This document shows, in pieces, positions 4,726-44,632 of a stretch of 64,000 nt of DNA. Each line of letters begins with the position of its first letter. Within the stretch, counting starts at the first letter, position 1. The notes beneath the pieces are model-generated. The model saw only the letters and a program-made list of their open reading frames with translations. It did not search any database and had not been told where the DNA came from. The position numbers were made by a program, and so were the translations under genes. Source of the stretch: Patescibacteria group bacterium (GTDB taxonomy: Bacteria > Patescibacteriota > Minisyncoccia > Phycocordibacterales > PALSA-1337); NCBI GenBank assembly GCA_038061795.1, contig JBBTYL010000003.1, positions 128,041-192,040 of the forward strand. The letters run 5' to 3'.

Positions 4726-6405
4726 TTAAAGCGTCTCCTGATCTGGCACAACGACATTCGACTTCCAGAACTTATGATGGAGAGTAGCCCAAACCTCCTT
4801 TATTTCCCTGTTCTTGAGTATTACAAGCACGATGATCCCCGCGATTATGCCTACGATGCCCGCGCAGAAACCCTGAAGAAACACTCCCCACGCCTTGTCG
4901 AGCGTAAAGAAAAGATTGAAGAAACGGAGAGAAAGGAATGTCACATAACCCATGATGATAGAAGCGCAGAAACTCTGGAAAAGCGCCGCGATGACCGGCT
5001 TGGTGAAGCCAGGATAATCCTTCTCGAAAATATGCCAATGAAGATAGGTATTGAAGATGATTCCGATCGAATATGCCAGAGGAAGCACAAGAACGCTAGT
5101 TCCCATCTGTCCAGAAACCTTGAGCAAGTCCTGAAGAAAAAAAGCAAACATCGGAAAAGCGAAAAAGGCCTTCGTAAATCCATAACCGAGTCCGGCGATG
5201 ACAAGCCCGGAAATGATGTTTATGATAAGTGGCTTCCGCGTCTTCCCTTCAGCATAATATGCGCGAACGAAAAGAAGAATGAGGCTCTGGCCGATGACAG
5301 AAACGATGAAAATTGCGAGCGTGGCGGCCGTGAGGCGCGTGTCGGCCCAATCGAACTTTCCAGCACCGTAGATGGTTCGGACGATTTGCGCGCGAAGCAC
5401 TATGAAGAGCACCATGATTGGGATCGACCAAAAGACAATGTGGCGGGCAGAATCAATCATCTGGCCAAGGAATTCGGTGCGGTTCTTTTCAACAAAAAAT
5501 TTAGACAGTGTCGGGAATACAGCGGAAGAATAACTGACGCCGATGATGGAAAGCGGTACGGATTGGAGATTGAGCGCGAGATTGAAGATGGAGATTGATC
5601 CGCCGCTCATGAGAGAGGCAAGAGCGATCAGGAAAAAGGAGGCAAGCTGATTGGCGGAAAGCGTCAGCGTCCTCGGCAGGGAAATCATTACCACCTTCCT
5701 GATGTCATTCCAATCGATGCGGAAATTGAAGCTAGGGAAGGTTTCCTTGTGCATGATGAAAGGAATCTGTATCGTCATATGCAAGAGCGCGCCTATCACG
5801 ACGCCCCAGATCAGGCCATGCAATCCTAGGAAAGGATATAGGAATATGATGCCGAAGATTATGCCGGCATTGTATACGACCGGACTAAGCGCATATACGA
5901 GGAATCGGCGGTGCATCTGCGTGATGCTTGAAAGGAAATTTGAGAGGCCTAGGAAGATCGGGGAAAGAAGAAGTATCCTCGTCGCCGAAATGAGTTCCGG
6001 CAAGGACGGATCATTGACGAATCCAGGTATAAGGATCTGTATGAGCCAAGGTATCAGGAAATAAGCGATGATGCTCACGGCGATGATCGCAAGAAAGAAA
6101 GCAGAGAAGATGCTGTCGATGAATTTCCTTCCCTTATCGGAATCTTTATGGAACCGATCGATGAAGAACGGCACTAGCACGGAAGCAGACACTACCGAGG
6201 CGACAGAAACGAATATCAGATCAGGAATCCTGAATGCGGAATAATAAACGTCGAGCATATGACCAGCTCCGAAGCTGTAAGCAAGAAGCTTGTCACGGAC
6301 AAGCCCAAGCACCTGCGACATGACCGCAAAGAATGCGAGAAGATACGCAGCTTCATGAAGGCCGCGTATCTCTTTGCCCATCATCTCGAAAAACTTTTTT
6401 ACCAT
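4726..6405 (-). CDS. murJ: lipid II flippase MurJ (MviN family)
   Basis: 559 aa, about 14 TM helices, with the N-terminus LGLVRDKLLAYSFGAG typical of MurJ/MOP exporters. Its ATG overlaps the upstream stop (TAATG). Confidence 0.88.
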   Translation of the reverse strand: MVKKFFEMMGKEIRGLHEAAYLLAFFAVMSQVLGLVRDKLLAYSFGAGHMLDVYYSAFRIPDLIFVSVASVVSASVLVPFFIDRFHKDSDKGRKFIDSIFSAFFLAIIAVSIIAYFLIPWLIQILIPGFVNDPSLPELISATRILLLSPIFLGLSNFLSSITQMHRRFLVYALSPVVYNAGIIFGIIFLYPFLGLHGLIWGVVIGALLHMTIQIPFIMHKETFPSFNFRIDWNDIRKVVMISLPRTLTLSANQLASFFLIALASLMSGGSISIFNLALNLQSVPLSIIGVSYSSAVFPTLSKFFVEKNRTEFLGQMIDSARHIVFWSIPIMVLFIVLRAQIVRTIYGAGKFDWADTRLTAATLAIFIVSVIGQSLILLFVRAYYAEGKTRKPLIINIISGLVIAGLGYGFTKAFFAFPMFAFFLQDLLKVSGQMGTSVLVLPLAYSIGIIFNTYLHWHIFEKDYPGFTKPVIAALFQSFCASIIMGYVTFLSLRFFNLFFTLDKAWGVFLQGFCAGIVGIIAGIIVLVILKNREIKEVWATLHHKFWKSNVVVPDQETL

Positions 6406-14624: not shown

Positions 14625-17600
14625 TTATTCCGAAGAAGTTTCTTCCACTACCTCGGTCGTCGTTTCAGTAGGCGTCTCTTCAATACCTTCTTCTGTTGCC
14701 GGTTCCTCAACGGGTTCTTCTTCAACAACATCAATTTCTTCTATATTATTGTCTTCCACCGGCGTAGTCTGTTCCGATACCTCCTGAGTACTAGAAGCAA
14801 CACTATCATCTGCAGTACCCGCCTCAGTTTCATGTTCTGTATCTGTCTCACCAACATCATCTGTTGAAGTCGAAACGGTTGTTGATGATTCTGGTATTGT
14901 GGTTGGCGTAGAGGTAGAAACTATATCATCATGAATAGTGTCCTGTTCGTCAGATTCCTCCGTCTCATCATCTGATACAGATTCCTGGTGAACGGTACCA
15001 CCGGCATCTAGAAGTAGAGCCTTAAATTGATCCTTGGTCACGCACACATCATCGACACAAATATCATTCTGAACATTGAATGTCCCGTCAACGAACCAAG
15101 CAAGTACTTTATTGATTTTTGCCACTAGCTCCTTCACCGCCTTGACCAAGATGGAAATGATGGCACGGTCATCGATACCAGAAAGGTCTCCGTCTGCATT
15201 GTAAGTGACGAGACGAGCGTCGATACCTTCTACTTCATCGGCAATGAAACCGTATCGAAGTCGCTGGTCTCCATCATTGTAGACAAATGATGTCGGCATG
15301 AGACCGTTGACGACTGACAGGGCGTCTAGAGACAAAGTTTCGATGTCGTGCTTGGTCTCGCGGAGAGATGGGAGACATGCGTCAGAACCAGAGTTGTATA
15401 CTAGTTCGTTGTTCGAGGAGAGACAGACTGATCCTGCTCCGGTGGAGCCGGTGAGGCCATCGAATCCAGCCGTGCCAGTAACTGAAAACTTGCGCCACGG
15501 CGATGTAGTACCAACACCGACATTTCCCCCTCCATTGAAGATGGCGTCGTAGTTGTTGGTGCCTCCGGTCACTGAGGATATGTACAGGCCTATGTTGTTA
15601 GCCGATGTTCCAGACCATGAGCCGGTGGAGACGATCTCTATGCCAGACTTGTTGATGAAAGACGTGGTTGATGTGGCGGTATTTGATACCTTGATGCCAC
15701 TGAAGGCTGAAGTTTTGACATCGGAGTCAGCTGGCAGTGAAATGTCCAGGATATGAGACGGAGTAATGTCATTGATGCCTATGAGTCCTAGGCCAGAGAT
15801 GAAAAGACGCGACAGTGAGGCTGATCCAGAGTTGGTCTCGAAGCTTATGGGGCGGTAGACTGCATTCCCTGAGGTGCTCGTGAACTTCGCTCCACCGTTC
15901 GATCCTGTGGCGCTGATGTTGAAGGAAGATTGGCCAGTCTTGGTTATGAGGAGAGACGGGTCGCTTGTGTTGCTTATCTGTATGTCCTTAGCGAAGGTGC
16001 TAGCTACGGTTGTAGATGTAGCAGTGAACGAACCTGCCAGAGCGTTCGTGCCTAGGTCGGAAGACCCGTTGACTGACAATGCTCTCCAGGGGGAGGTGGT
16101 GCCGATACCGATGTTGCCGGCGACTGGGACGCTTGAGACAGAAGCACCATTATAAACACCAGTACCATATATGAGATTACCGATATTTAATTGTTGGCTA
16201 CCGGTTACAGAAGGTGCTTCTATGTTTTGGCCAATGACGATATTGTAGCCTCCTGTGGTTATTCCATATCCAGCCTGATAGCCGAGAAGTGTGTTGTAAT
16301 TACTACCAGTACTTGCACTATATCCTGCTTGATAGCCAGCATATACGCCTCCTTGATTAGAATATGGTGTCACTCCACCCGACCCAGCGTTATATCCGAT
16401 TGCCACAGTATTAGTCGCGGAAGTGTTGTACGCGAGCGCATACATACCAACCGCTGAATTGTATGACCCAGTCTTATTGCTTCCAAGTGCCCAATGTCCA
16501 ATAGCAGAGTTGCGCGATCCAGTCGTATTTTCATAATTGGAATAATATCCGACCGACGAATTGTAATTACCTGAACTGTTCCTATATAGGCTTGAGTGAC
16601 CGATTCCGGTATTTTGTGTGCCAGTCGTACTGTACAACGATGCATAACCAAGCCCAGTATTACCGACACCGCTAACATTGAGTTGCAATGACTGTGCTCC
16701 GACGGCGGTATTATGAGTTCCTGTCTGCAATGTAGATGCCGCCCCATGTCCTATCGCCGTATTGTATCCACCAGTAGTTAGTGCCCTCAATGAATCAAAT
16801 CCTGTACCAACATTGTATGATCCAGATGCAGCAATATTCCAGCTGGGATTACCGACAAATAGATTTGATAGGGTTGTCGTACCAAACACATATCCAGCAT
16901 CGATTATATCCTTCGTAGCCAGATTGCTTATCGGCTTATCAATCGATGGAGCAAGCGAATCAATCAAAGTGGCTAGTCCTCTAGCTATGACATCATACCC
17001 AGTCGAATTTAGATGGAGTGTATCGTATCGTAGCGATGTCGGTGGTGTTCCGGCGCTACAGTTTGTCTGATCCGCCGTAGTTGACGCATACCATCCTGTA
17101 GTATTCGATGGTCCAATTGGATTACAAGTGGATAACAGCCATTCCATCGTATCAAAATAATTATCACCGTAAGTAGATGACAAAGTACTATTGATTGAAG
17201 CGATGTTGTCATATGTTCCAGTTCCTGAGCCTTCAGTTAGGCCAGTAATCACACCCATGACTATAAAGTACCTTGGTTGCGTCATGAGTGAGACCATCGA
17301 AGCAATGTTCGCTATCACTGTCGCTGGCGAACTATTGTCATTACGGCCAGACCATATGACCTCAAAATCATTCTGCCTGTTGGTAGCTTTCACGAATCTT
17401 GCAAGTATATTAGTGCTTGACTCTCCACCAACACCGCCATTGAATGTAATATATTCCCTGCTCGTGTAATTGTTTATCGTGTATGTCCACGGATTTCCGC
17501 CACTACCGCTCGTCAAACTGTCTCCCCACGCCGATATCCTAAACGACGACGATACGCTCGATGATGTAGCATACTGTGCATAAAGATTTCCGGAAACAGT

Positions 17601-18524
17601 AAGATTTGTCGTCGATGCATTCGTAAACATCTGCAACCCGGTAAACGTATTAGCGGAATACAGCTTCGGTATAGTCGTCGAAGCATTGATGTAGCTGTTC
17701 ACTCTAGCATCAGTGTAATAGAGGTTCGAACCTTCAGAGACATTGGTAGTGAGGAGACCGAGAGAGGAGGTGGAAATGCCAGAGAGAGTCGTGCCGTTTG
17801 CAGCATAGTAGGCGAGCTGGTTGGCAGTGCCGCTATTGATGGTGCCAGAACCACCAGCACTGATACCCAACGATGATGTAGCCACCAGGTCATAGCCTCC
17901 CAGAGCATTGCCGAGGAGGACTTCACCGTAGGCTGGAGCAGTAGATGTACCTGTACCACCGTTGCTGATTGCTAGATCTGTACCAGACCAGTTGGAGTCA
18001 TTGACTGACGAAGCAGTAGCTAGAGTACCTAGACCAGATATGCTAGAGGTATCTAGGTCATCTACGGAATTGCCAATACTGGTGAATACACGATCAGTCT
18101 GTATAGATGACTTGGTCTTGAAGGCTTCGAGCTCGGAGCGGAGGGATGATATGAGGGAGAGGAGGTAGTCTGCTGAAGCTTCTGGGGGATTGGGTGTTGC
18201 CTGTTCCCTGATGATGGTCTCGACTATCCTGACTGGAGCTGAAGTCTGAGGGTTGAAATCGGATACGGGAACCAAGGGAGCTTCAGGAGCAGGGCTAGCT
18301 ATGACAATATCCTCCTTGCACATGTCAGTGCTAAGGGACAGGAGCGAGGTCAGAGAACAGACGAACCCCTTCCAGCCGTCTGAAGCAGAGGCAGTCTGCC
18401 ATCCCCATGCAGTGGAAAAGGCGTAGGAGCTCTGGGGTGGCATGCTGCTGAAGACCACAGCCAAGAAAAGCGCCGCCACAAGCATTGCTCCAGCCCTGCG
18501 GAGCCGTTTTTTCAGGAAATCCAT
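14625..18524 (-). CDS. giant secreted surface protein: tail-fibre-like N-region, SGNH/GDSL hydrolase, YadA-head-like repeats, peptidase S74 intramolecular-chaperone domain, acidic tail
   Basis: 1299 aa. The signal peptide ends in SSYA. A GDSL block AWGDSLTSG (~17515-17535) and a DTLHLN catalytic-His block (~17010-17030) mark the hydrolase. NTAIGxxA/NSAVG repeats span ~16180-16790. S74 signature SLRETKHDIETL...YGFIADEV (~15090-15380). The D/E/T-rich tail is at 14628-15000. Confidence 0.85.
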   Translation of the reverse strand: MDFLKKRLRRAGAMLVAALFLAVVFSSMPPQSSYAFSTAWGWQTASASDGWKGFVCSLTSLLSLSTDMCKEDIVIASPAPEAPLVPVSDFNPQTSAPVRIVETIIREQATPNPPEASADYLLSLISSLRSELEAFKTKSSIQTDRVFTSIGNSVDDLDTSSISGLGTLATASSVNDSNWSGTDLAISNGGTGTSTAPAYGEVLLGNALGGYDLVATSSLGISAGGSGTINSGTANQLAYYAANGTTLSGISTSSLGLLTTNVSEGSNLYYTDARVNSYINASTTIPKLYSANTFTGLQMFTNASTTNLTVSGNLYAQYATSSSVSSSFRISAWGDSLTSGSGGNPWTYTINNYTSREYITFNGGVGGESSTNILARFVKATNRQNDFEVIWSGRNDNSSPATVIANIASMVSLMTQPRYFIVMGVITGLTEGSGTGTYDNIASINSTLSSTYGDNYFDTMEWLLSTCNPIGPSNTTGWYASTTADQTNCSAGTPPTSLRYDTLHLNSTGYDVIARGLATLIDSLAPSIDKPISNLATKDIIDAGYVFGTTTLSNLFVGNPSWNIAASGSYNVGTGFDSLRALTTGGYNTAIGHGAASTLQTGTHNTAVGAQSLQLNVSGVGNTGLGYASLYSTTGTQNTGIGHSSLYRNSSGNYNSSVGYYSNYENTTGSRNSAIGHWALGSNKTGSYNSAVGMYALAYNTSATNTVAIGYNAGSGGVTPYSNQGGVYAGYQAGYSASTGSNYNTLLGYQAGYGITTGGYNIVIGQNIEAPSVTGSQQLNIGNLIYGTGVYNGASVSSVPVAGNIGIGTTSPWRALSVNGSSDLGTNALAGSFTATSTTVASTFAKDIQISNTSDPSLLITKTGQSSFNISATGSNGGAKFTSTSGNAVYRPISFETNSGSASLSRLFISGLGLIGINDITPSHILDISLPADSDVKTSAFSGIKVSNTATSTTSFINKSGIEIVSTGSWSGTSANNIGLYISSVTGGTNNYDAIFNGGGNVGVGTTSPWRKFSVTGTAGFDGLTGSTGAGSVCLSSNNELVYNSGSDACLPSLRETKHDIETLSLDALSVVNGLMPTSFVYNDGDQRLRYGFIADEVEGIDARLVTYNADGDLSGIDDRAIISILVKAVKELVAKINKVLAWFVDGTFNVQNDICVDDVCVTKDQFKALLLDAGGTVHQESVSDDETEESDEQDTIHDDIVSTSTPTTIPESSTTVSTSTDDVGETDTEHETEAGTADDSVASSTQEVSEQTTPVEDNNIEEIDVVEEEPVEEPATEEGIEETPTETTTEVVEETSSE

Positions 18525-18632
18525 GCTGTAATTGTATCATTCGTAGGGGAAGAAAAACGGGGAGAGGGTGGGGATAACGTGGAGGGTGGGGGATTGTTGT
18601 CAAAACCCCTCTGTCGGCATTTTTACGAAATT

Positions 18633-18656
18633 GCGGAGGAAGAGGGATTCGAATCC
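18633..18656 (-). repeat. tRNA-Ser(CGA) 3'-end fragment, copy 1
   Basis: GCGGAGGAAGAGGGATTCGAATCC matches the 3' acceptor and T-loop half of the tRNA-Ser(CGA) gene (20884-20907) over the first 21 nt. No matching 5' half exists, so it is not a tRNA. Confidence 0.8.
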
Positions 18657-18726
18657 ACAGTAAAAACCTGTAATGTCGGTTGAAATTCAACCGTAGCACT
18701 CGAGAGGCTCTAGATATGTATTATAG

Positions 18727-19626
18727 CTATTTCTTAATTTGATCAACAGCTTGTGACTCATCAAAATCAAGCCATTGGGCCCAACCTCCTAATCTATAAA
18801 TTAGACCTGGCCAATCAAATGTAATGGTTCCATTATCTTCTCTTAGATTTATTTTTTCGCGTACGTCATTTGGCAAATCCTTAACGTATTTAATCCACAT
18901 CGCCTTACCCATATCAGACATCTCACTTGTCCTTGTATATTGAATAATACCGTTAAAAGATTCTACCTTCTCAAAATTAAATCCTGCCTGTAGAAACCAT
19001 TGTTCAAGCTCAGTCTGAGTGGCAAAATATCTAGGTCTTTCATTACCCATATCTTGATATTGTCCAGAAGCCAAATCCTTTAAATTCACAAGGTCATTTA
19101 ATACTTTATTAGTATCATCAGTAGAATAATATGTTTGAAGAATAAATAGCCCATCTTTTTTAAGCACTCTACGTATTTCTTGAAGTGCTTTCAATTGTGC
19201 CTGGCGCGGAAGATCATAAAGTGCAGAACGTAAAAATACACGATCAAATGATCTCTTTAAAAAAGGGGTTGAGATAATTGAAGATTCGACTTTTTGAATT
19301 GCTGGTTCAATCATATTAAGCATGCCTGGGCTAAAATCCAATGCCCAGGCATCAGTCTGAGGAAATTTATCTTTAATTTGGCTAGACAAAAGAGCTGTTC
19401 CGCTCATCGCTTCGAGAACACGTAAACCATCAGACATACGCCCGCTATCAATAAGTTTTGGAATAAACTCATCTTTTCTTATTCCTTCATAAAGAGGACC
19501 GTTCCAGCTTCCAGCAATACGATCGTATCTTTTTTGAAGTGGAATATTTAATATCGGGAAAGAATGGGTTTCGATCTTCAATTCTTCATTATTTTCGCCA
19601 GAAGGAGATTTCTCAAATTTTTCCAT
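18727..19626 (-). CDS. class I SAM-dependent methyltransferase
   Basis: 299 aa with motif I VLEAMSGTA and post-I ALDFSPGM, and the Methyltransf_11-like core DRVFLRSALYDLP...LKKDGLFIL. The gene looks AT-rich by eye. Confidence 0.75.
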   Translation of the reverse strand: MEKFEKSPSGENNEELKIETHSFPILNIPLQKRYDRIAGSWNGPLYEGIRKDEFIPKLIDSGRMSDGLRVLEAMSGTALLSSQIKDKFPQTDAWALDFSPGMLNMIEPAIQKVESSIISTPFLKRSFDRVFLRSALYDLPRQAQLKALQEIRRVLKKDGLFILQTYYSTDDTNKVLNDLVNLKDLASGQYQDMGNERPRYFATQTELEQWFLQAGFNFEKVESFNGIIQYTRTSEMSDMGKAMWIKYVKDLPNDVREKINLREDNGTITFDWPGLIYRLGGWAQWLDFDESQAVDQIKK

Positions 19627-19675
19627 ATAATTAATACTACTATAGTTTCCAATATAGACAACTCATCTCGACTTG

Positions 19676-19716
19676 GCGGAGGAAGAGGGATTCGGTCAGG
19701 AGTCGCTTTCTGCTGA
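19676..19716 (-). repeat. 41-bp direct repeat (left copy); first 19 nt match the tRNA-Ser(CGA) 3' end
   Basis: GCGGAGGAAGAGGGATTCGGTCAGGAGTCGCTTTCTGCTGA is identical to 20740-20780. Confidence 0.9.
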
Positions 19717-19754
19717 GAGAATAACCAAAGCGGCTATAGAGGCCTTGTAGGGCT

Positions 19755-20393
19755 TTAAAATTCAATCTCCTTTCCAAGCTCCAAAGAAATAAATTGTATT
19801 CCTGCTTTTTCTGAATAAAGTTTGAGAAGTCTTTCTGTGATGCCATGTGTCCTTATAAGATTTCCATCATGAACAGGAAAGGCGATTCTCGGTTTTACGT
19901 CAAGAATATAATCAATCGACTGAGCAATGCTGCTCCATGGAGCCGAAACAGGAAATGCCAAAATATCTACAGGAACATTTGGATTATGGAAGGCGTCTCC
20001 AGGGCAGAATAATTTTTTATCAAAAAGATATCCAGTATTTTCTACTTGCTCATAATCACTATAAATAGGCGCGTGAGTTGTGCCATGTCCAGCAATCTCG
20101 ACTCCGCCTATTTCGATTTTTTCTCCGTCTCTGACCTTCGTATATGCAATAGATTCCTTATCAAGAATCTTTCCGACTGAAGCATTAGTGATAATTTGTG
20201 CTTGAGGATTATTCTTTAAAACAATTTTGAGAGACTCAATGTGAAGATGGTCAGTGTGCTCGTGAGTAATAACAATGCAATCAATATTTTTTACCTCATT
20301 TTGTTCAGTAGTATATGCGCCGGGATCAGTCAGAAACCGTTTTTCGTTTATTTCGATAATAAGGCAGCAATGGCCGAGTTTTGTAATTTTCAT
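19755..20393 (-). CDS. MBL-fold metallo-hydrolase
   Basis: 212 aa with the HEHTDH (HxHxDH) metal-binding motif. An extended -10 TGCTAGAAT lies 6 nt upstream of the ATG. Confidence 0.85.
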   Translation of the reverse strand: MKITKLGHCCLIIEINEKRFLTDPGAYTTEQNEVKNIDCIVITHEHTDHLHIESLKIVLKNNPQAQIITNASVGKILDKESIAYTKVRDGEKIEIGGVEIAGHGTTHAPIYSDYEQVENTGYLFDKKLFCPGDAFHNPNVPVDILAFPVSAPWSSIAQSIDYILDVKPRIAFPVHDGNLIRTHGITERLLKLYSEKAGIQFISLELGKEIEF

Positions 20394-20433
20394 ATTTGAA
20401 TTCTAGCACAGGTGAACACAATACCAGGATATA

Positions 20434-20462
20434 TTGACATATTTAACATTAAATGCTATAAT
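20434..20462 (+). promoter_or_regulatory. near-consensus sigma70-type promoter
   Basis: TTGACA (20434-20439), a 17-nt spacer ending in TGC, then TATAAT (20457-20462). The ATG is 9 nt downstream. Confidence 0.7.
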
Positions 20463-20471
20463 ATAAAGCGA

Positions 20472-20684
20472 ATGAATACTTTGAGCGTTCTTTTTACCTT
20501 CGTCCTCGTAACCATCGCAATATCATACGGATTCGGATGGATGTTGGGGGGACCGAAAAAAGCAAATTGGATAGTTTCATGGGAGCTTAAAAAGCTAACC
20601 CAATTCATGCGATGGGCTCTCGGGCTCATCTTTCAGAAGCTAGCAGACCTTTGCAAGCCTCCGAAAAAGAAAAAAATACCTTAA
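20472..20684 (+). CDS. 70-aa membrane protein, unknown function
   Basis: MNTLSVLFTFVLVTIAISYGFGWMLGG has one TM helix and the protein has a basic C-terminus. It is framed by a consensus promoter and a terminator hairpin. Confidence 0.5.
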   Translation: MNTLSVLFTFVLVTIAISYGFGWMLGGPKKANWIVSWELKKLTQFMRWALGLIFQKLADLCKPPKKKKIP

Positions 20685-20688
20685 CCCT

Positions 20689-20724
20689 GGCGAACGACTC
20701 ACACTCGTTCGCCTCAACTTTTAT
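20689..20724 (+). terminator. rho-independent terminator
   Basis: GGCGAACG-ACTCACACT-CGTTCGCC hairpin followed by TCAACTTTT. Confidence 0.6.
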
Positions 20725-20739
20725 ATAGACAAAAATTCT

Positions 20740-20780
20740 GCGGAGGAAGAGGGATTCGGTCAGGAGTCGCTTTCTGCTGA
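20740..20780 (-). repeat. 41-bp direct repeat (right copy)
   Basis: Identical to 19676-19716. It forms the 3' half of the structured element at 20740-20836. Confidence 0.9.
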
Positions 20781-20836
20781 AAGCGCTCCCGACCCGGCCT
20801 CGCTCGCCTGCGCTCGCTCCGGCTTTCTCACCCTCC
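20740..20836 (-). ncRNA. candidate tRNA-Ser-derived structured RNA ('element X'), function unknown
   Basis: On the minus strand, 5' GGAGGGUGAG pairs with 3' CUCUUCCUCC (10 bp, 1 mismatch, 1 G-U). Inside is a 15-bp hairpin GUCGGGAGCGCUUUC-AGCA-GAAAGCGACUCCUGAC. The G-U pairs exist only in the minus-strand reading. There is no valid T-arm, so it is not a functional tRNA. Confidence 0.3.
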
Positions 20837-20884
20837 CCCTACACTAGTTTGCGCAAGCTAAAAAGCTTGCTCAAACTATCGTTG

Positions 20885-20971
20885 CGGAGGAAGAGGGATT
20901 CGAACCCTCGAGACCAGTGAAGGCCTGCCGCTTTTCGAAAGCGGTACTTTAAACCACTCAGCCATTCCTCC
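20885..20971 (-). tRNA. tRNA-Ser (anticodon CGA), long variable arm, CCA not encoded
   Basis: The reverse complement is GGAGGAATGGCTGAGTGGTTTAAAGTACCGCTTTCGAAAAGCGGCAGGCCTTCACTGGTCTCGAGGGTTCGAATCCCTCTTCCTCCG. The anticodon loop is TTCGAAA. Confidence 0.9.
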
Positions 20972-20979
20972 GTATTGTG

Positions 20980-21066
20980 CGGAAGATGAGGGATTTGAAC
21001 CCTCGAAGGCCGTTAAGCCTTACCACCTTTCCAAGATGGCGCACTAGGCCGCTATGCGAATCTTCC
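20980..21066 (-). tRNA. tRNA-Ser (anticodon GGA), long variable arm, CCA not encoded
   Basis: The reverse complement is GGAAGATTCGCATAGCGGCCTAGTGCGCCATCTTGGAAAGGTGGTAAGGCTTAACGGCCTTCGAGGGTTCAAATCCCTCATCTTCCG. The anticodon loop is TTGGAAA. Confidence 0.9.
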
Positions 21067-25307: not shown

Positions 25308-25736
25308 ATGTCGGTACGAAATTTATTCAAAAGATATATAGAGAAATCAAAATATAAAAAGAATGTTGTCATTTATCGCGCTTATGTATGCACTCCAAGA
25401 AAAGAAATACAAGATATTGTGTCAAAAGAGAATCAAAAAATGGTATTTATTTCGACAAAATCATTAAAACACATCTATGACAGGCACGTTTACGAAAAGA
25501 AAAAGCCGAAAGATTTTTACTTTTTAATTAAGAACATTGAAAAGATTATCGGCCGTCCGGATAGAATTTACAAAAACAAGCCGAATAAAAGGGGTGATTT
25601 TATTTTTGTAAAAGAAATGGCAAATCAAACTTATATGTGCACATTGGAAATCGTAAATAAGACAGAATTAGATATAGTTTCAGCTTATATCACTGGCGAA
25701 AAATACCTCTCTAAATTCACACTTTTGTGGAGCTAG
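25308..25736 (+). CDS. hypothetical Lys-rich protein; possible Barnase-EndoU-ColicinE5/D-RelE-like (PBECR-type) nuclease fold
   Basis: 142-aa ORF that looks very AT-rich. The segment SLKHIYDRHVYEKK...IEKIIGRPDRIYKNKPNKRGDFIFVKE resembles the HxxxRH...PD pattern I associate with phage or plasmid PBECR-like domains. This assignment is tentative. Confidence 0.45.
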   Translation: MSVRNLFKRYIEKSKYKKNVVIYRAYVCTPRKEIQDIVSKENQKMVFISTKSLKHIYDRHVYEKKKPKDFYFLIKNIEKIIGRPDRIYKNKPNKRGDFIFVKEMANQTYMCTLEIVNKTELDIVSAYITGEKYLSKFTLLWS

Positions 25737-42226: not shown

Positions 42227-42344
42227 GGGAATTGTACGTGGCGATGATTATACCATATCCCGTATGAAGTTTTAGTGAAGAAATTTCGGGGTTTTGCACA
42301 GATTATTTTGTTGGGAAAGAGAAAAATAAACTATAATGATTCTC

Positions 42345-43025
42345 ATGAAAATTTTAATAATTGAAGATGATGAGGACGTAATTGATTTTCTAAGGGTCAG
42401 CCTTAAATCAGAATCTTTTACGGTTGATGTCGCGAGAAATGGTTCAGATGGCTCATTCCTGGCTCGAACGAACCCCTATGATATGATAATAATTGATTAC
42501 TCACTCCCCGTTAAAAATGGCCTGACTGTCTGCAAAGAAATCAGGACTGCAGAAATTGAAACTCCAATAATTTTCCTGACAATCCATTTGGAAATCAAAA
42601 AGAAAATCGATGCTTTAGATATTGGCGCAGATGATTACATAGTAAAGCCATTTTCATTTGACGAGCTGAGGTCAAGGATCTATGCAATCAAAAGAAGGCC
42701 TAAGAAGATCGAAAGCTTAATATTGGCAGCTGGCGATATAGTAATTGATACAAGAAAACAGGATGCTCGCAGAGAAAACATAGCACTTAACTTAACAAGA
42801 AAAGAATACAATCTGCTTGAGTATCTTGTCAAAAATAAAAATATGGTTGTATCGCGAGGAATGATCATGGAACATGTGTGGAACGCCGAAAGTGATCCCC
42901 TATCAAACACCGTAGAAGCTCACATCCTTAATTTGAGAAAAAAAATAAATATAGAATCAGCACTAGGAAAGAATAAAGAAATTATTAGGAATGTTCCTGG
43001 GCGCGGTTACATAATTGATGCGTAG
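42345..43025 (+). CDS. OmpR/PhoB-family response regulator
   Basis: Receiver domain (MKILIIEDDEDV, IIIDYSLP, KPF) plus a winged-helix C-terminus (...GRGYIIDA). The start at 42345 is supported by TATAAT (42332-42337) 7 nt upstream. Confidence 0.9.
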   Translation: MKILIIEDDEDVIDFLRVSLKSESFTVDVARNGSDGSFLARTNPYDMIIIDYSLPVKNGLTVCKEIRTAEIETPIIFLTIHLEIKKKIDALDIGADDYIVKPFSFDELRSRIYAIKRRPKKIESLILAAGDIVIDTRKQDARRENIALNLTRKEYNLLEYLVKNKNMVVSRGMIMEHVWNAESDPLSNTVEAHILNLRKKINIESALGKNKEIIRNVPGRGYIIDA

Positions 43026-43267
43026 TTAAAATTTAATCAATATTTTATAATTTTTTTTATTTTTCTTTATTACCAGTTGTTATACTTTCAGGCGTTATAA
43101 GTCGAAATAACATTTAGCCATTAAAAAAATAACCATGAATAACTACATACAACAGATACTTTCTGGTGAAGCTGGACGAAAAAGCATCACCATAGAATCA
43201 GCATCCAAAAATGCTGATGAAAATTTCTTGCCGTGGAGCGGATAAGCTCGATTTAAAATATGAATAT

Positions 43268-44632
43268 ATGAAATTCAAAATACATCGGCTTTACATGGCA
43301 AAATCTCAGGATGAGGACACAAAAAGGCATGAGTATATACTCAATATAATCCTTTGCGTATCAATCCTCATATTGACCTTATACGATCTTATCATCCTTA
43401 GAAACTCTCTTGTAAAAACGATAGATTATGATGGGATACAATTTGCGACATTCACAGCAATTATTTGTGCGTACGTGGTTTTATTAATACTCTCAAAAAG
43501 AGGTTACATAAAAACAGCATCGTATGCCCTCATAGCTTCATATTGGGCAGGCGCGCTCCATTGCGGGTACCAATGGGGCGCTAGTTTGCCTATAACATTA
43601 ATAACCTTTATTCTTGTCATTTTTATCTCATCAATTCTGATAAGTTCTAAATTTGGGGCATCAGTGACTTTCATCACTATAATATCATTTGTATTGCTTG
43701 GCATTCATGAGTATAAGAATCCAGAAATATTGTCTTGGCGAATGGATTCAATCAACAACACTGATTTAATAGCATATTCATTTTTTCTTGTTGGCATAGC
43801 ATTGCTTTCGTGGCTTTCTAACAAAGAAACTGAGAGATCATTGAGACGAGCGCGCAACTCAGAAAATGAACTGAAAAATGAAAGGGATCAGCTCGAAATA
43901 AAGATAGTCGAAAGAACAAAAGAACTTAGAGAAAGTCAGTTGATGCGAATGTCAGAGCTTGAAAGGATAGCAGAGTTCGGCAGGCTATCACAGGGCTTGT
44001 TTCATGACCTAATCTCCCCATTGACATCAGTCATGCTTCATATGGAAAAGATAAAAGGGATTTCGCCGTCAGAATTAAATGAATCGCATGCCTCGTTAGA
44101 AAAAATAGTCATTGCTTCAAAGAAAATGGGAGAGAACATGCAAAATTTAAGATTTTCCCTGAGAAACACTTTGCCACCTAGGCAATGTTCAATTGCGGAT
44201 GAGCTCAATAAATGCATCGGTTTTCTTAAATTTAAAATAAGAGAGAATAACATAAGCATTAGGATTAAAAATGACTCAAATTGTTTGTGGTTCGGCGATC
44301 CAGTCAAATTACAACAAATATTCTCCAATCTTATAACGAATGCCATTGATGCCTGCACCTCAAAAAACACCGAAGCTGGAAAAATTATAATCAGCTTAAA
44401 CTCTCACGATAAGAAGTGTCGAATAAGCATAAAAGACAATGGTATCGGAATGGACGCAGAAACAATTAAAAAAATATTTGACCCGTTTTTCACGACAAAA
44501 CCACCGGAACTCGGCACTGGAATCGGACTTACAACTGTTCAAAGAATTATGGACGAAATCAATGGAACCATATCAGTTAAGAGTATAAAAGATGGTGGTA
44601 GCACTTTTATACTATTATTACCACTAAAATAG
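43268..44632 (+). CDS. membrane sensor histidine kinase
   Basis: About 6 TM helices, then H-box FHDLISPLTSV, N-box NLITNAIDA, G1 DNGIGM and G2 GTGIGL. The start is uncertain (43211, 43268 or 43295); 43268 has TAAAAT 8 nt upstream. Confidence 0.82.
   Translation: MKFKIHRLYMAKSQDEDTKRHEYILNIILCVSILILTLYDLIILRNSLVKTIDYDGIQFATFTAIICAYVVLLILSKRGYIKTASYALIASYWAGALHCGYQWGASLPITLITFILVIFISSILISSKFGASVTFITIISFVLLGIHEYKNPEILSWRMDSINNTDLIAYSFFLVGIALLSWLSNKETERSLRRARNSENELKNERDQLEIKIVERTKELRESQLMRMSELERIAEFGRLSQGLFHDLISPLTSVMLHMEKIKGISPSELNESHASLEKIVIASKKMGENMQNLRFSLRNTLPPRQCSIADELNKCIGFLKFKIRENNISIRIKNDSNCLWFGDPVKLQQIFSNLITNAIDACTSKNTEAGKIIISLNSHDKKCRISIKDNGIGMDAETIKKIFDPFFTTKPPELGTGIGLTTVQRIMDEINGTISVKSIKDGGSTFILLLPLK

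Follow-up and report, generated by a model that had tools for sequence, protein, structure and literature searches.

Islets that lack ccr genes and are bounded by attachment-site (att)-type repeats are known as psi-SCC elements, and homology-facilitated illegitimate recombination is a process in which one side of a join is anchored in homologous sequence and the other is made through microhomology. The latter term is used of events during natural transformation (PMC6382021, PMC8116780), and the concept of cis-mobilizable elements (CIMEs), which accrete with integrative and conjugative elements (ICEs) or integrative and mobilizable elements (IMEs), is laid out in work cited in PMC3146451 and PMC5704250. 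In the tDNA islands of the Islander database, a regenerated tRNA gene and displaced fragments of it mark the island ends, sometimes in tandem (PMC4383910); a 2014 survey listed tRNA-Ser 3' ends as unknown among serine-recombinase attachment sites. The closest precedent for the locus described here is given by the islands at the ssrA gene of Dehalococcoides (McMurdie et al. 2011, PMC3146451), where a 20-bp repeat starting in the T-loop recurs through tandem arrays behind a stable-RNA gene, the gene for a CcrB-like large serine recombinase (LSR) sits beside attL on the reverse strand, and 15 islands that lack an integration module have been interpreted as cis-mobilisable or fixed. Here we analyse an array of four direct copies of a tRNA-Ser(CGA) 3' end in a 64-kb stretch of DNA (64,000 nucleotides; hereafter the window) from a Patescibacteria group bacterium (assembly GCA_038061795.1, contig JBBTYL010000003.1), whose closest species-level genomes are metagenome-assembled genomes of Candidatus Taylorbacteria/Paceibacteria.

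Patescibacteria (CPR) have tiny genomes, and little is known of how they gain genes; a limited literature search found no description of such a system among them. A first-pass annotation of the window had read the array as three equivalent att-bounded cassettes and had raised the idea of an acquisition mechanism new to the lineage. We favour a different account, to which we give a probability of roughly 55%: the four copies would be a composite scar at a tRNA-Ser recombination hotspot, left by the combined steps set out below, rather than three equivalent cassettes.

Four repeat copies of different origin

A scan of the window that allowed up to two mismatches found the 19-mer GCGGAGGAAGAGGGATTCG exactly four times, always on the plus strand, with starts at 18633, 19676, 20740 and 20884 (copies 1 to 4) and spacings of 1043, 1064 and 144 bp, just as first annotated; no match was expected by chance, and none occurred in 100 shuffled sequences. 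The repeat cores measure 19-23 bp across the four copies and start at C56 or U54 of the T-loop. The array is laid out as follows, from the conserved anchor of the locus outwards.

20979 to 21066, minus strand: tRNA-Ser(GGA), the conserved anchor, 7 bp upstream of tRNA-Ser(CGA)
20884 to 20971, minus strand: tRNA-Ser(CGA), whose last 19 nt (20884-20902) are copy 4
20846 to 20877, minus strand: terminator-like hairpin directly 3' of tRNA-Ser(CGA), AGTTTGAGCAAGC-TTTTT-AGCTTGCGCAAACT
20735 to 20846, minus strand: module M, a four-helix structured element; copy 3 (20740-20758) is the 3' strand of its basal stem
20759 to 20780, minus strand: X22, the 22 nt upstream of copy 3, forming the loop and 3' arm of the long hairpin P3 of M
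19676 to 19719, minus strand: copy 2, repeating 44 bp of M at its 3' end, 41 bp of them (X22 and the 19-nt core) without a mismatch
18631 to 18662, minus strand: copy 1, a tRNA-Ser(CGA) 3' fragment and putative distal attR-type boundary of the array

The tRNA-Ser(CGA) gene itself supplies copy 4; the repeats had been rightly recognized as copies of its 3' end, and three displaced fragments of 19-23 nt, all in direct orientation, lie beside the intact gene. Copy 1 matches the tRNA gene exactly over 21-23 bp and, with mismatches, over about 32 nt that include the whole T-loop. Copies 2 and 3 do form the perfect 41-bp direct repeat that had been described, or 44 bp with one mismatch. The four copies thus differ in origin, and for this reason the reading as three integrase-less cassettes is only partly right. 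At this position tRNA-Ser(CGA) is absent from all 80 related loci, and in relatives an equivalent hairpin of different sequence follows the tRNA. Further degenerate copies of the core, sought in a C-rich tract at 18552-18594, did not rise above the shuffle background. The 19-mer has 18 matches in IMG/VR, mostly phage tRNA-Ser genes, and the element-side 22-mer has no further copies in IMG/VR or JGI metagenomes. One IMG/VR match, L028, is a Bacteroidota-type tandem with two tyrosine integrases, a classical case unrelated to the window locus.

The two gene-bearing segments have GC contents of 0.357 and 0.384, against 0.450 +/- 0.035 for the window, and the GC content at third codon positions (GC3) is 0.25 in the methyltransferase gene and 0.29 in the metallo-beta-lactamase (MBL)-fold gene that they carry, against 0.489 +/- 0.074 across 40 genes; an AT-richness first judged by eye is thereby borne out in numbers. 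In contigs of five assemblies of groundwater metagenomes from Hainich well H41 the gene order of the array recurs at 99.97-100% identity, and this agreement rules out an assembly artefact as its source.

Several of these features could also be explained by three successive conservative integrations into tRNA-Ser(CGA), leaving tandem att-bounded elements of 125, 1,064 and 1,043 bp that are non-autonomous and mobilised in trans through a recombinase gene located elsewhere, as in CIME-type accretion. Direct copies starting in or at the T-loop are the classical signature of tDNA islands (for the principle, PMC4383910), tandem islands without a recombinase are documented (PMC3146451), both gene-bearing units are low in GC, and the 22 nt shared by copies 2 and 3 on the element side would be expected of same-family elements or of integration into a resident attR. 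We nevertheless consider this history unlikely. The methyltransferase, MBL and 70-amino-acid (aa) proteins are found in their exact form in this single context only, in the H41 metagenomes, and two of the three units, examined below, tell against it.

A methyltransferase islet related to serine-recombinase elements

Between copies 2 and 1 lies a lone gene for an S-adenosylmethionine (SAM) methyltransferase.

18652 to 19675, minus strand: methyltransferase islet (E3), comprising a putative LSR-family left-end remnant (19627-19675), the methyltransferase gene and a hairpin (18677-18693)
18727 to 19626, minus strand: class I SAM methyltransferase gene, GC3 0.25

No homologue of the methyltransferase was found in the 80 related loci or in IMG/VR; elsewhere its homologues occur in unrelated contexts. 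The nearest, P0004 (73% identity), is the sole cargo of a 2,648-bp LSR element on contig L119, in which tRNA-Ser, methyltransferase and a convergent 440-aa LSR follow one another and are bounded by an imperfect direct repeat of the tRNA end; the target of this element is a tRNA-Ser with anticodon ACT. On L134, an LSR of the L119 family and the same left-end sequence stand directly after a tRNA-Ser(CGA) gene, and a tRNA-Ser gene lies within 8 kb in three of the four LSR contexts looked up.

After copy 2 the window continues with CCAAGTCGAG.., interpreted here as an encoded CCA together with the left end of the L119/L134 LSR family. The flank CCGCCAAGTCGAGATGAGTTGTCT aligns with the family left end CCGCCAACACGAG(T/C)TAGCTCGA, with 14 of 21 nt identical after CCGCCAA in a short alignment that concerns the methyltransferase islet only, and the CCA is not encoded by the window's own tRNA gene. 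From this alignment, CCA included, copy 2 would be an attL/attP-type site of the L119/L134 family. The sequences thus support a methyltransferase segment that is compositionally foreign and shares both cargo and left end with an LSR element family. We suggest that the islet, from copy 2 to copy 1, is a remnant of an L119/L134-type LSR integrative element that kept the family left end and homologous cargo and lost its LSR gene by a deletion that we infer rather than see, because no LSR fragment remains. With the LSR family able to supply a cargo homologue and the left end of one islet, nothing in the data appears to call for a new cassette mechanism.

Two further observations concern this element family and its target. 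The tRNA-Ser of L119 (L119:7793-7882) is identical to one at L057:14032-14121, and its anticodon, ACT as called by ARAGORN, is unusual for bacteria. The LSR genes of L121, L132 and L134 adjoin defence-like or restriction-modification genes (N6_N4 methylases, an HSP70-like/AAA cluster, SIR2_2, PycTM and Mrr_cat), and a second LSR gene of L134 lies beside a Rep-like gene.

The MBL unit and its microhomology junction

The 1,064-bp unit between copies 3 and 2 contains two genes, a set of expression signals and the stump of a third gene.

20689 to 20713, plus strand: GC hairpin after the 70-aa gene, with a 9-bp stem and a weak T-tract, not called by the terminator scan
20472 to 20684, plus strand: gene for a 70-aa protein with one transmembrane helix
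20434 to 20462, plus strand: consensus sigma-70 promoter, matching 12 of 12 consensus positions, with an extended -10 TG
19755 to 20393, minus strand: MBL-fold hydrolase gene (Lactamase_B_3), GC3 0.29
19713 to 19757, minus strand: ABC-transporter gene stump, KPYKASIAALVIL versus KPYKAFVAALVIL of L037

The genes that the first-pass annotation had named in the two units, MBL hydrolase, 70-aa membrane protein and lone SAM methyltransferase, are all as described; of the signals it gave to the 70-aa gene the promoter is secure, and the terminator comes down to the uncalled hairpin. No repeats surround the MBL orthologues of L037, a sister species, and L109 (86% and 76% identity), which stand 24-33 bp beyond tRNA-Ser(GGA), and in L037 the gene after MBL encodes an ABC transporter. 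In the window, the MBL stop codon is followed by 45 bp with homology to about 13 codons (8-20) of that transporter gene. This homology runs down to 19713 and stops in an 8-nt microhomology (6 of 8 nt), CTCTCAGC, whose counterparts are CTTGCAGC in the ABC gene and CTTTCAGC in the hairpin loop of M; from 19718 onward the sequence matches M. Because the ABC homology ends where M identity begins, the 41-bp repeat is bounded on the left, at copy 2, by a microhomology junction inside the ABC gene, not by a conservative att crossover. Three successive integrations would have left an element arm there, and instead we find a stump syntenic with L037.

A single exchange in tRNA/M sequence together with one illegitimate joint, made through microhomology, would account for the 1,064-bp unit (70-aa gene, MBL gene and ABC stump) and for its perfect repeats. 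The pattern is that of homology-facilitated illegitimate recombination or, alternatively, of a Campbell-type insertion of an aberrantly excised circle, and the event that formed the unit would have re-duplicated 44 bp of M, giving rise to copy 2. To judge from these junctions, the MBL unit is probably not a clean cassette.

For its MBL gene two origins are possible. Synteny and the ABC stump favour a gene that stayed in place. Of 15 orthologue pairs, MBL is the only one in which the window gene has a lower GC3 than its L037 counterpart (0.288 versus 0.325), the other 14 having GC3 higher in the window by 0.01-0.20; this lone pair favours an allele returned from a lower-GC relative. The claim that the array carries small foreign cargo accordingly divides between the two genes: it stands for the methyltransferase, with its low GC3 and its absence from the 80 loci, and only in part for MBL, which has foreign GC3 yet is syntenic with L037 and L109.

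A conserved folded module at copy 3

Copy 3 is embedded in module M, which in the window spans about 110 nt and belongs to a family of about 100-130 nt. In L080, L066 and L058, tRNA-Ser(GGA) and its terminator hairpin are followed by sequence to which M can be aligned; a covariance model adds a member after tRNA-Ser in L100, one after tRNA-Leu in L073 and six at other intergenic sites.

L080:11790-11901: tRNA-linked relative of M
L066:12079-12190: tRNA-linked relative of M
L058:5756-5863: tRNA-linked relative of M
L100:5186-5316: tRNA-linked relative of M
L073:14628-14752 and 5999-6063: M-family members in L073
L049:2212-2314: other M-family member
L065:4178-4285: other M-family member
L064:6756-6843: other M-family member, adjoining the RNase P RNA gene, just upstream
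L087:2619-2716: other M-family member
L062:76-170: other M-family member

Across 11 members, 91.6% of cells are paired, compared with 63% for shuffled sequences and about 44% when partners are slid; in 28 of the 33 pairs both sides vary, and the covariation score of 0.597 against 0.188 was reached by none of 500 shuffles, all in an alignment that was fitted to the model and is biased towards structure. Single sequences fold with z = -3.4 to -5.7 in five of six tRNA-linked members; the tRNA-Leu member of L073 folds no better than shuffles (z = 0.04). A MAFFT alignment of the family cores was not structural and was not used. Two hairpins make up the conserved core, one with a GNAG loop and another of 16 bp that has a bulged A and the loop AGCA. 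Where a member is tRNA-linked, the same genome's tRNA, from C56 to the 3' end, is duplicated as the 3' strand of its basal helix, and in other species this tRNA-like strand has decayed and the core has been kept. By its modelled fold, tRNA-linked M may mimic an acceptor/T minihelix in which the core stands where the T-loop would be. Copy 3 would be an old duplication of the segment from T-loop to 3' end, since taken up into M as the 3' strand of its basal helix.

That the 125-bp 'element' of the three-integration history is a conserved structured module also present in other species counts against it too, and with the resident synteny and microhomology junction of the MBL unit it removes the equivalence of the three cassettes on which the first-pass annotation had relied, the 144-bp unit being M.

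A bolder alternative makes M, or its P2/P3 core, the active agent: small, and either mobile or RNA-guided, it would be aimed at hairpin loops, the tRNA T-loop among them, and would give rise to tRNA 3'-end duplications, with copies 3 and 2 as products of an undescribed mechanism. Such an agent could explain why the same P2/P3 core sits atop unrelated basal stems, acceptor/T-stem mimics after tRNA-Ser or tRNA-Leu genes in some members and perfect 19-32-bp stems of unrelated sequence in the rest, why the 5' strand of the tRNA-linked basal helix repeats the duplicated tRNA end in inverted, imperfect form, and why related genomes carry M at different sites (L064 versus L066, for example); it would also sit well with Rfam searches in which only two tRNAs reached thresholds and nothing over M or its dispersed relatives appeared at E <= 0.1-1. 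We think it improbable all the same, as M has no associated protein that could be found, the dispersed members have no third copy of their stem sequence nearby, and two motif scans of IMG/VR returned no M. The family counts only 11 members, all within about 1.4 Mb of related loci, and the P2 helix of the window copy is broken. In L049 and L065 it occupies orthologous positions and its stems covary, as would be expected of an RNA gene passed on by vertical descent.

Candidate identities for M that were set aside are signal recognition particle RNA, RNase P, transfer-messenger RNA, Y RNA, ribozymes, retron RNA and attC, none of which fitted by eye or had an Rfam match. Tentatively, and with considerable reserve, we suggest that M represents an undescribed family of Paceibacteria elements, which may be small RNAs that resemble tRNA or may act in recombination or targeting and so create tRNA-end duplications, alongside LSRs of the clade that appear to use tRNA-Ser 3' ends as attachment sites.

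The tRNA-Ser hotspot in relatives

The order LemA-TPM-tRNA-Ser(GGA) is common to about 50 relatives, none of which has tRNA-Ser(CGA) there. Downstream of tRNA-Ser(GGA) the DNA is hypervariable, with 65 of 129 open reading frames (ORFs) occurring as singletons; Pfam annotation of these ORFs covered the 25 most frequent families and gives no count of rare recombinases. Partial duplications of the tRNA 3' end occur at the same site in L061 (21 bp), L086 (53 bp), L089 and L045. At L045:11413-13384 a nearly full-length degenerate copy of tRNA-Ser(GGA) lies 1.8 kb beyond the original, and the insert between the two contains ORFs of 391 and 122 aa without a Pfam match, a recombinase-less insertion at the same hotspot.

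In two relatives the site is occupied by an LSR gene (Resolvase + Recombinase + Zn_ribbon_recom) convergent to tRNA-Ser(GGA), at L094:13334-14962 and L048:12048-13607. Both reading frames overlap the tRNA 3' end by 24 nt, and their last residues (..DSNS, then the stop) are encoded by the T-arm complement, so that attachment site and recombinase gene overlap at the 3' end of the latter. In L094 a tyrosine integrase gene follows directly behind the LSR gene; no long direct repeats were found around the two elements in the stretches compared. A strain variant that co-occurs with the window genome, L003, is 99.86% identical to it over 8.5 kb and diverges exactly at the tRNA-Ser(GGA) 3' end. Unrelated DNA starts there, with an ORF (L003:8494-8708) directed towards the tRNA and running into it; the ORF aligns with the L094 LSR at its C-terminus (42% identity, 53 residues, E = 2e-7), its sole match, and has none in Pfam, NCBIfam or the protein databases. 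These contexts support the view of the locus as a site-specific integration hotspot at tRNA-Ser, and the original interpretation of the repeats as the trace of integration into a tRNA gene gains from them, since the tRNA-Ser 3' end is abutted by LSR genes and, in a single relative, by a tyrosine recombinase gene as well.

They also bear on whether any mobile element is needed. A purely local rearrangement, by replication slippage or unequal crossing-over at short repeats and with low GC as a gene-specific bias, would be in keeping with the one clearly illegitimate junction, made by microhomology, and with the MBL orthologues of L037 and L109, whose GC3 is also below that of their neighbours. 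It leaves out the LSR genes that abut the same tRNA in relatives and in the co-occurring strain, the cargo and end sequence that the methyltransferase islet shares with LSR elements, and the methyltransferase, 70-aa and 1299-aa genes, which have no counterpart in the 80 related loci; we regard it as very improbable.

No recombinase in the window

The statement that no recombinase is in sight survived three tests on the 64 kb: Pfam annotation of all ORFs of at least 130 aa, a six-frame LSR-profile search and a tyrosine-recombinase motif scan all found none. Pfam scans of window ORFs turned up no tyrosine recombinase domain, and no search was aimed at attC or IntI. The LSR P0138, considered as a recombinase of the same genome, was rejected since it comes from another organism. 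By their present gene content the islets have no recombinase of their own and could move only in trans or by recombination between repeats.

One metagenomic contig might be taken for movement of this kind and for a point in favour of three successive integrations: L017 (Logan contig, ERR3858138, 1094 bp) is a circular permutation of the MBL unit, window 19676-20780 (1064 + 30 bp). An excised circle or a tandem copy could have produced it, and it is equally expected from a de Bruijn loop; because the 41-bp repeat exceeds the assembler k of 31, the circle is uninformative. A gapped-pattern search for orthologous tRNA-Ser(CGA) loci in metagenomes found none.

How the array may have formed

From the sequence relationships, junctions, synteny, composition and recombinase contexts observed at this locus and in relatives we infer an order of events, the kind of enzyme involved, and an MBL allele either kept in place or brought back from a lower-GC relative. 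The composite scar would begin with the old duplication that became part of M, continue with an LSR element reduced to the methyltransferase islet, and include the exchange and microhomology joint that built the MBL unit and copy 2.

Several findings weigh against this account. The L003 match to the L094 LSR covers only 53 residues at a contig end (215 bp past the tRNA) at 4x coverage, and the L003 fragment has no significant match to the LSR family of L119. Within the islets no LSR pseudogene fragment was found, nor any recombinase in the 64-kb window. The exact repeat of the L119-type element is only 10-13 bp, at the CCA end, and the window repeats are 19-23 bp from the T-loop, so the att geometry is not identical. 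The evidence on MBL conflicts, synteny and ABC stump indicating resident DNA and GC3 a foreign allele; the covariation of M carries the alignment bias given above; and no empty site or alternative cassette content for tRNA-Ser(CGA) was recovered, two metagenome scans being empty.

Neighbouring genes and other variable segments

On the far side of the array lies one further gene without a counterpart in relatives.

14625 to 18524, minus strand: 1299-aa protein gene with weak GDSL-lipase and Peptidase_S74 (endosialidase chaperone) domains

It has no counterpart in the 80 related loci, yet its composition is native (GC3 0.46), and it is located in the variable region between tRNA-Ser(GGA) and an AAA_17 kinase gene. 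Several low-coverage contigs end just upstream of it, at 18525-18550.

Elsewhere in the window, a 142-aa PBECR3/PBECR2 nuclease-like gene (25308-25736, plus strand) occupies an AT-rich patch (GC 0.30) between secG and groES; the secG-groES interval is only about 70 bp in L037, which makes this gene a second small insertion in the window, with no tRNA nearby. A response regulator and histidine kinase pair (42336-44632, plus strand) has the lowest GC of the 40 larger genes (0.36-0.37) and may be another acquired segment.

Comparison with known systems

The locus illustrates, at base-pair resolution, that Patescibacteria use the classical tRNA-gene hotspot. It goes beyond the textbook case in that the recombinase genes at the site are mainly LSRs and that islets come down to a single gene. 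At least one 'cassette' appears to have been built by homologous or site-specific exchange plus a microhomology junction, not by clean integration, and it cautions that a repeat-flanked unit is not always a mobile cassette. Trailing tRNA genes and mimicking their 3' end, M is a candidate new RNA or recombination element.

The MBL unit resembles the products of homology-facilitated illegitimate recombination in having one side anchored in tRNA/M homology and the other joined via a 6-of-8-nt microhomology in an unrelated gene, a likeness read from sequence alone; it differs in that the outcome here is a 44-bp duplication, not a deletion. With CIMEs and psi-SCC elements the locus shares islets that are bounded by att-type repeats, lack recombination or transfer genes and stand in tandem at the attachment site of recombinase-bearing elements. 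Unlike those of CIMEs, the att sites here are putative, and the left boundary at copy 2 is not att-type.

Like the tDNA islands of Islander (PMC4383910), the locus has an intact tRNA gene, direct 3' fragments with identity from T-loop to 3' end, and foreign DNA between them. Islander requires a tyrosine integrase gene per island, and there is none here; the recombinase genes that abut tRNA-Ser in this clade are mostly LSRs, themselves only distant relatives of CcrB and XisF, all under family cut-offs.

Set beside the Dehalococcoides ssrA islands, the locus differs in its target, a tRNA-Ser gene instead of ssrA, in its units of about 1 kb with one or two genes, against 10-30 kb, and in a window that has no integration module, one illegitimate boundary and one repeat inside a conserved structured module. 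In common with those islands it has low GC and broken synteny, direct repeats of about 20 bp (19-23 bp, four times) that start in the T-loop and stand in tandem, and, outside the window, an LSR gene beside attL on the opposite strand, as in L003, L094 and L048, and with cargo between in L119 and L134.

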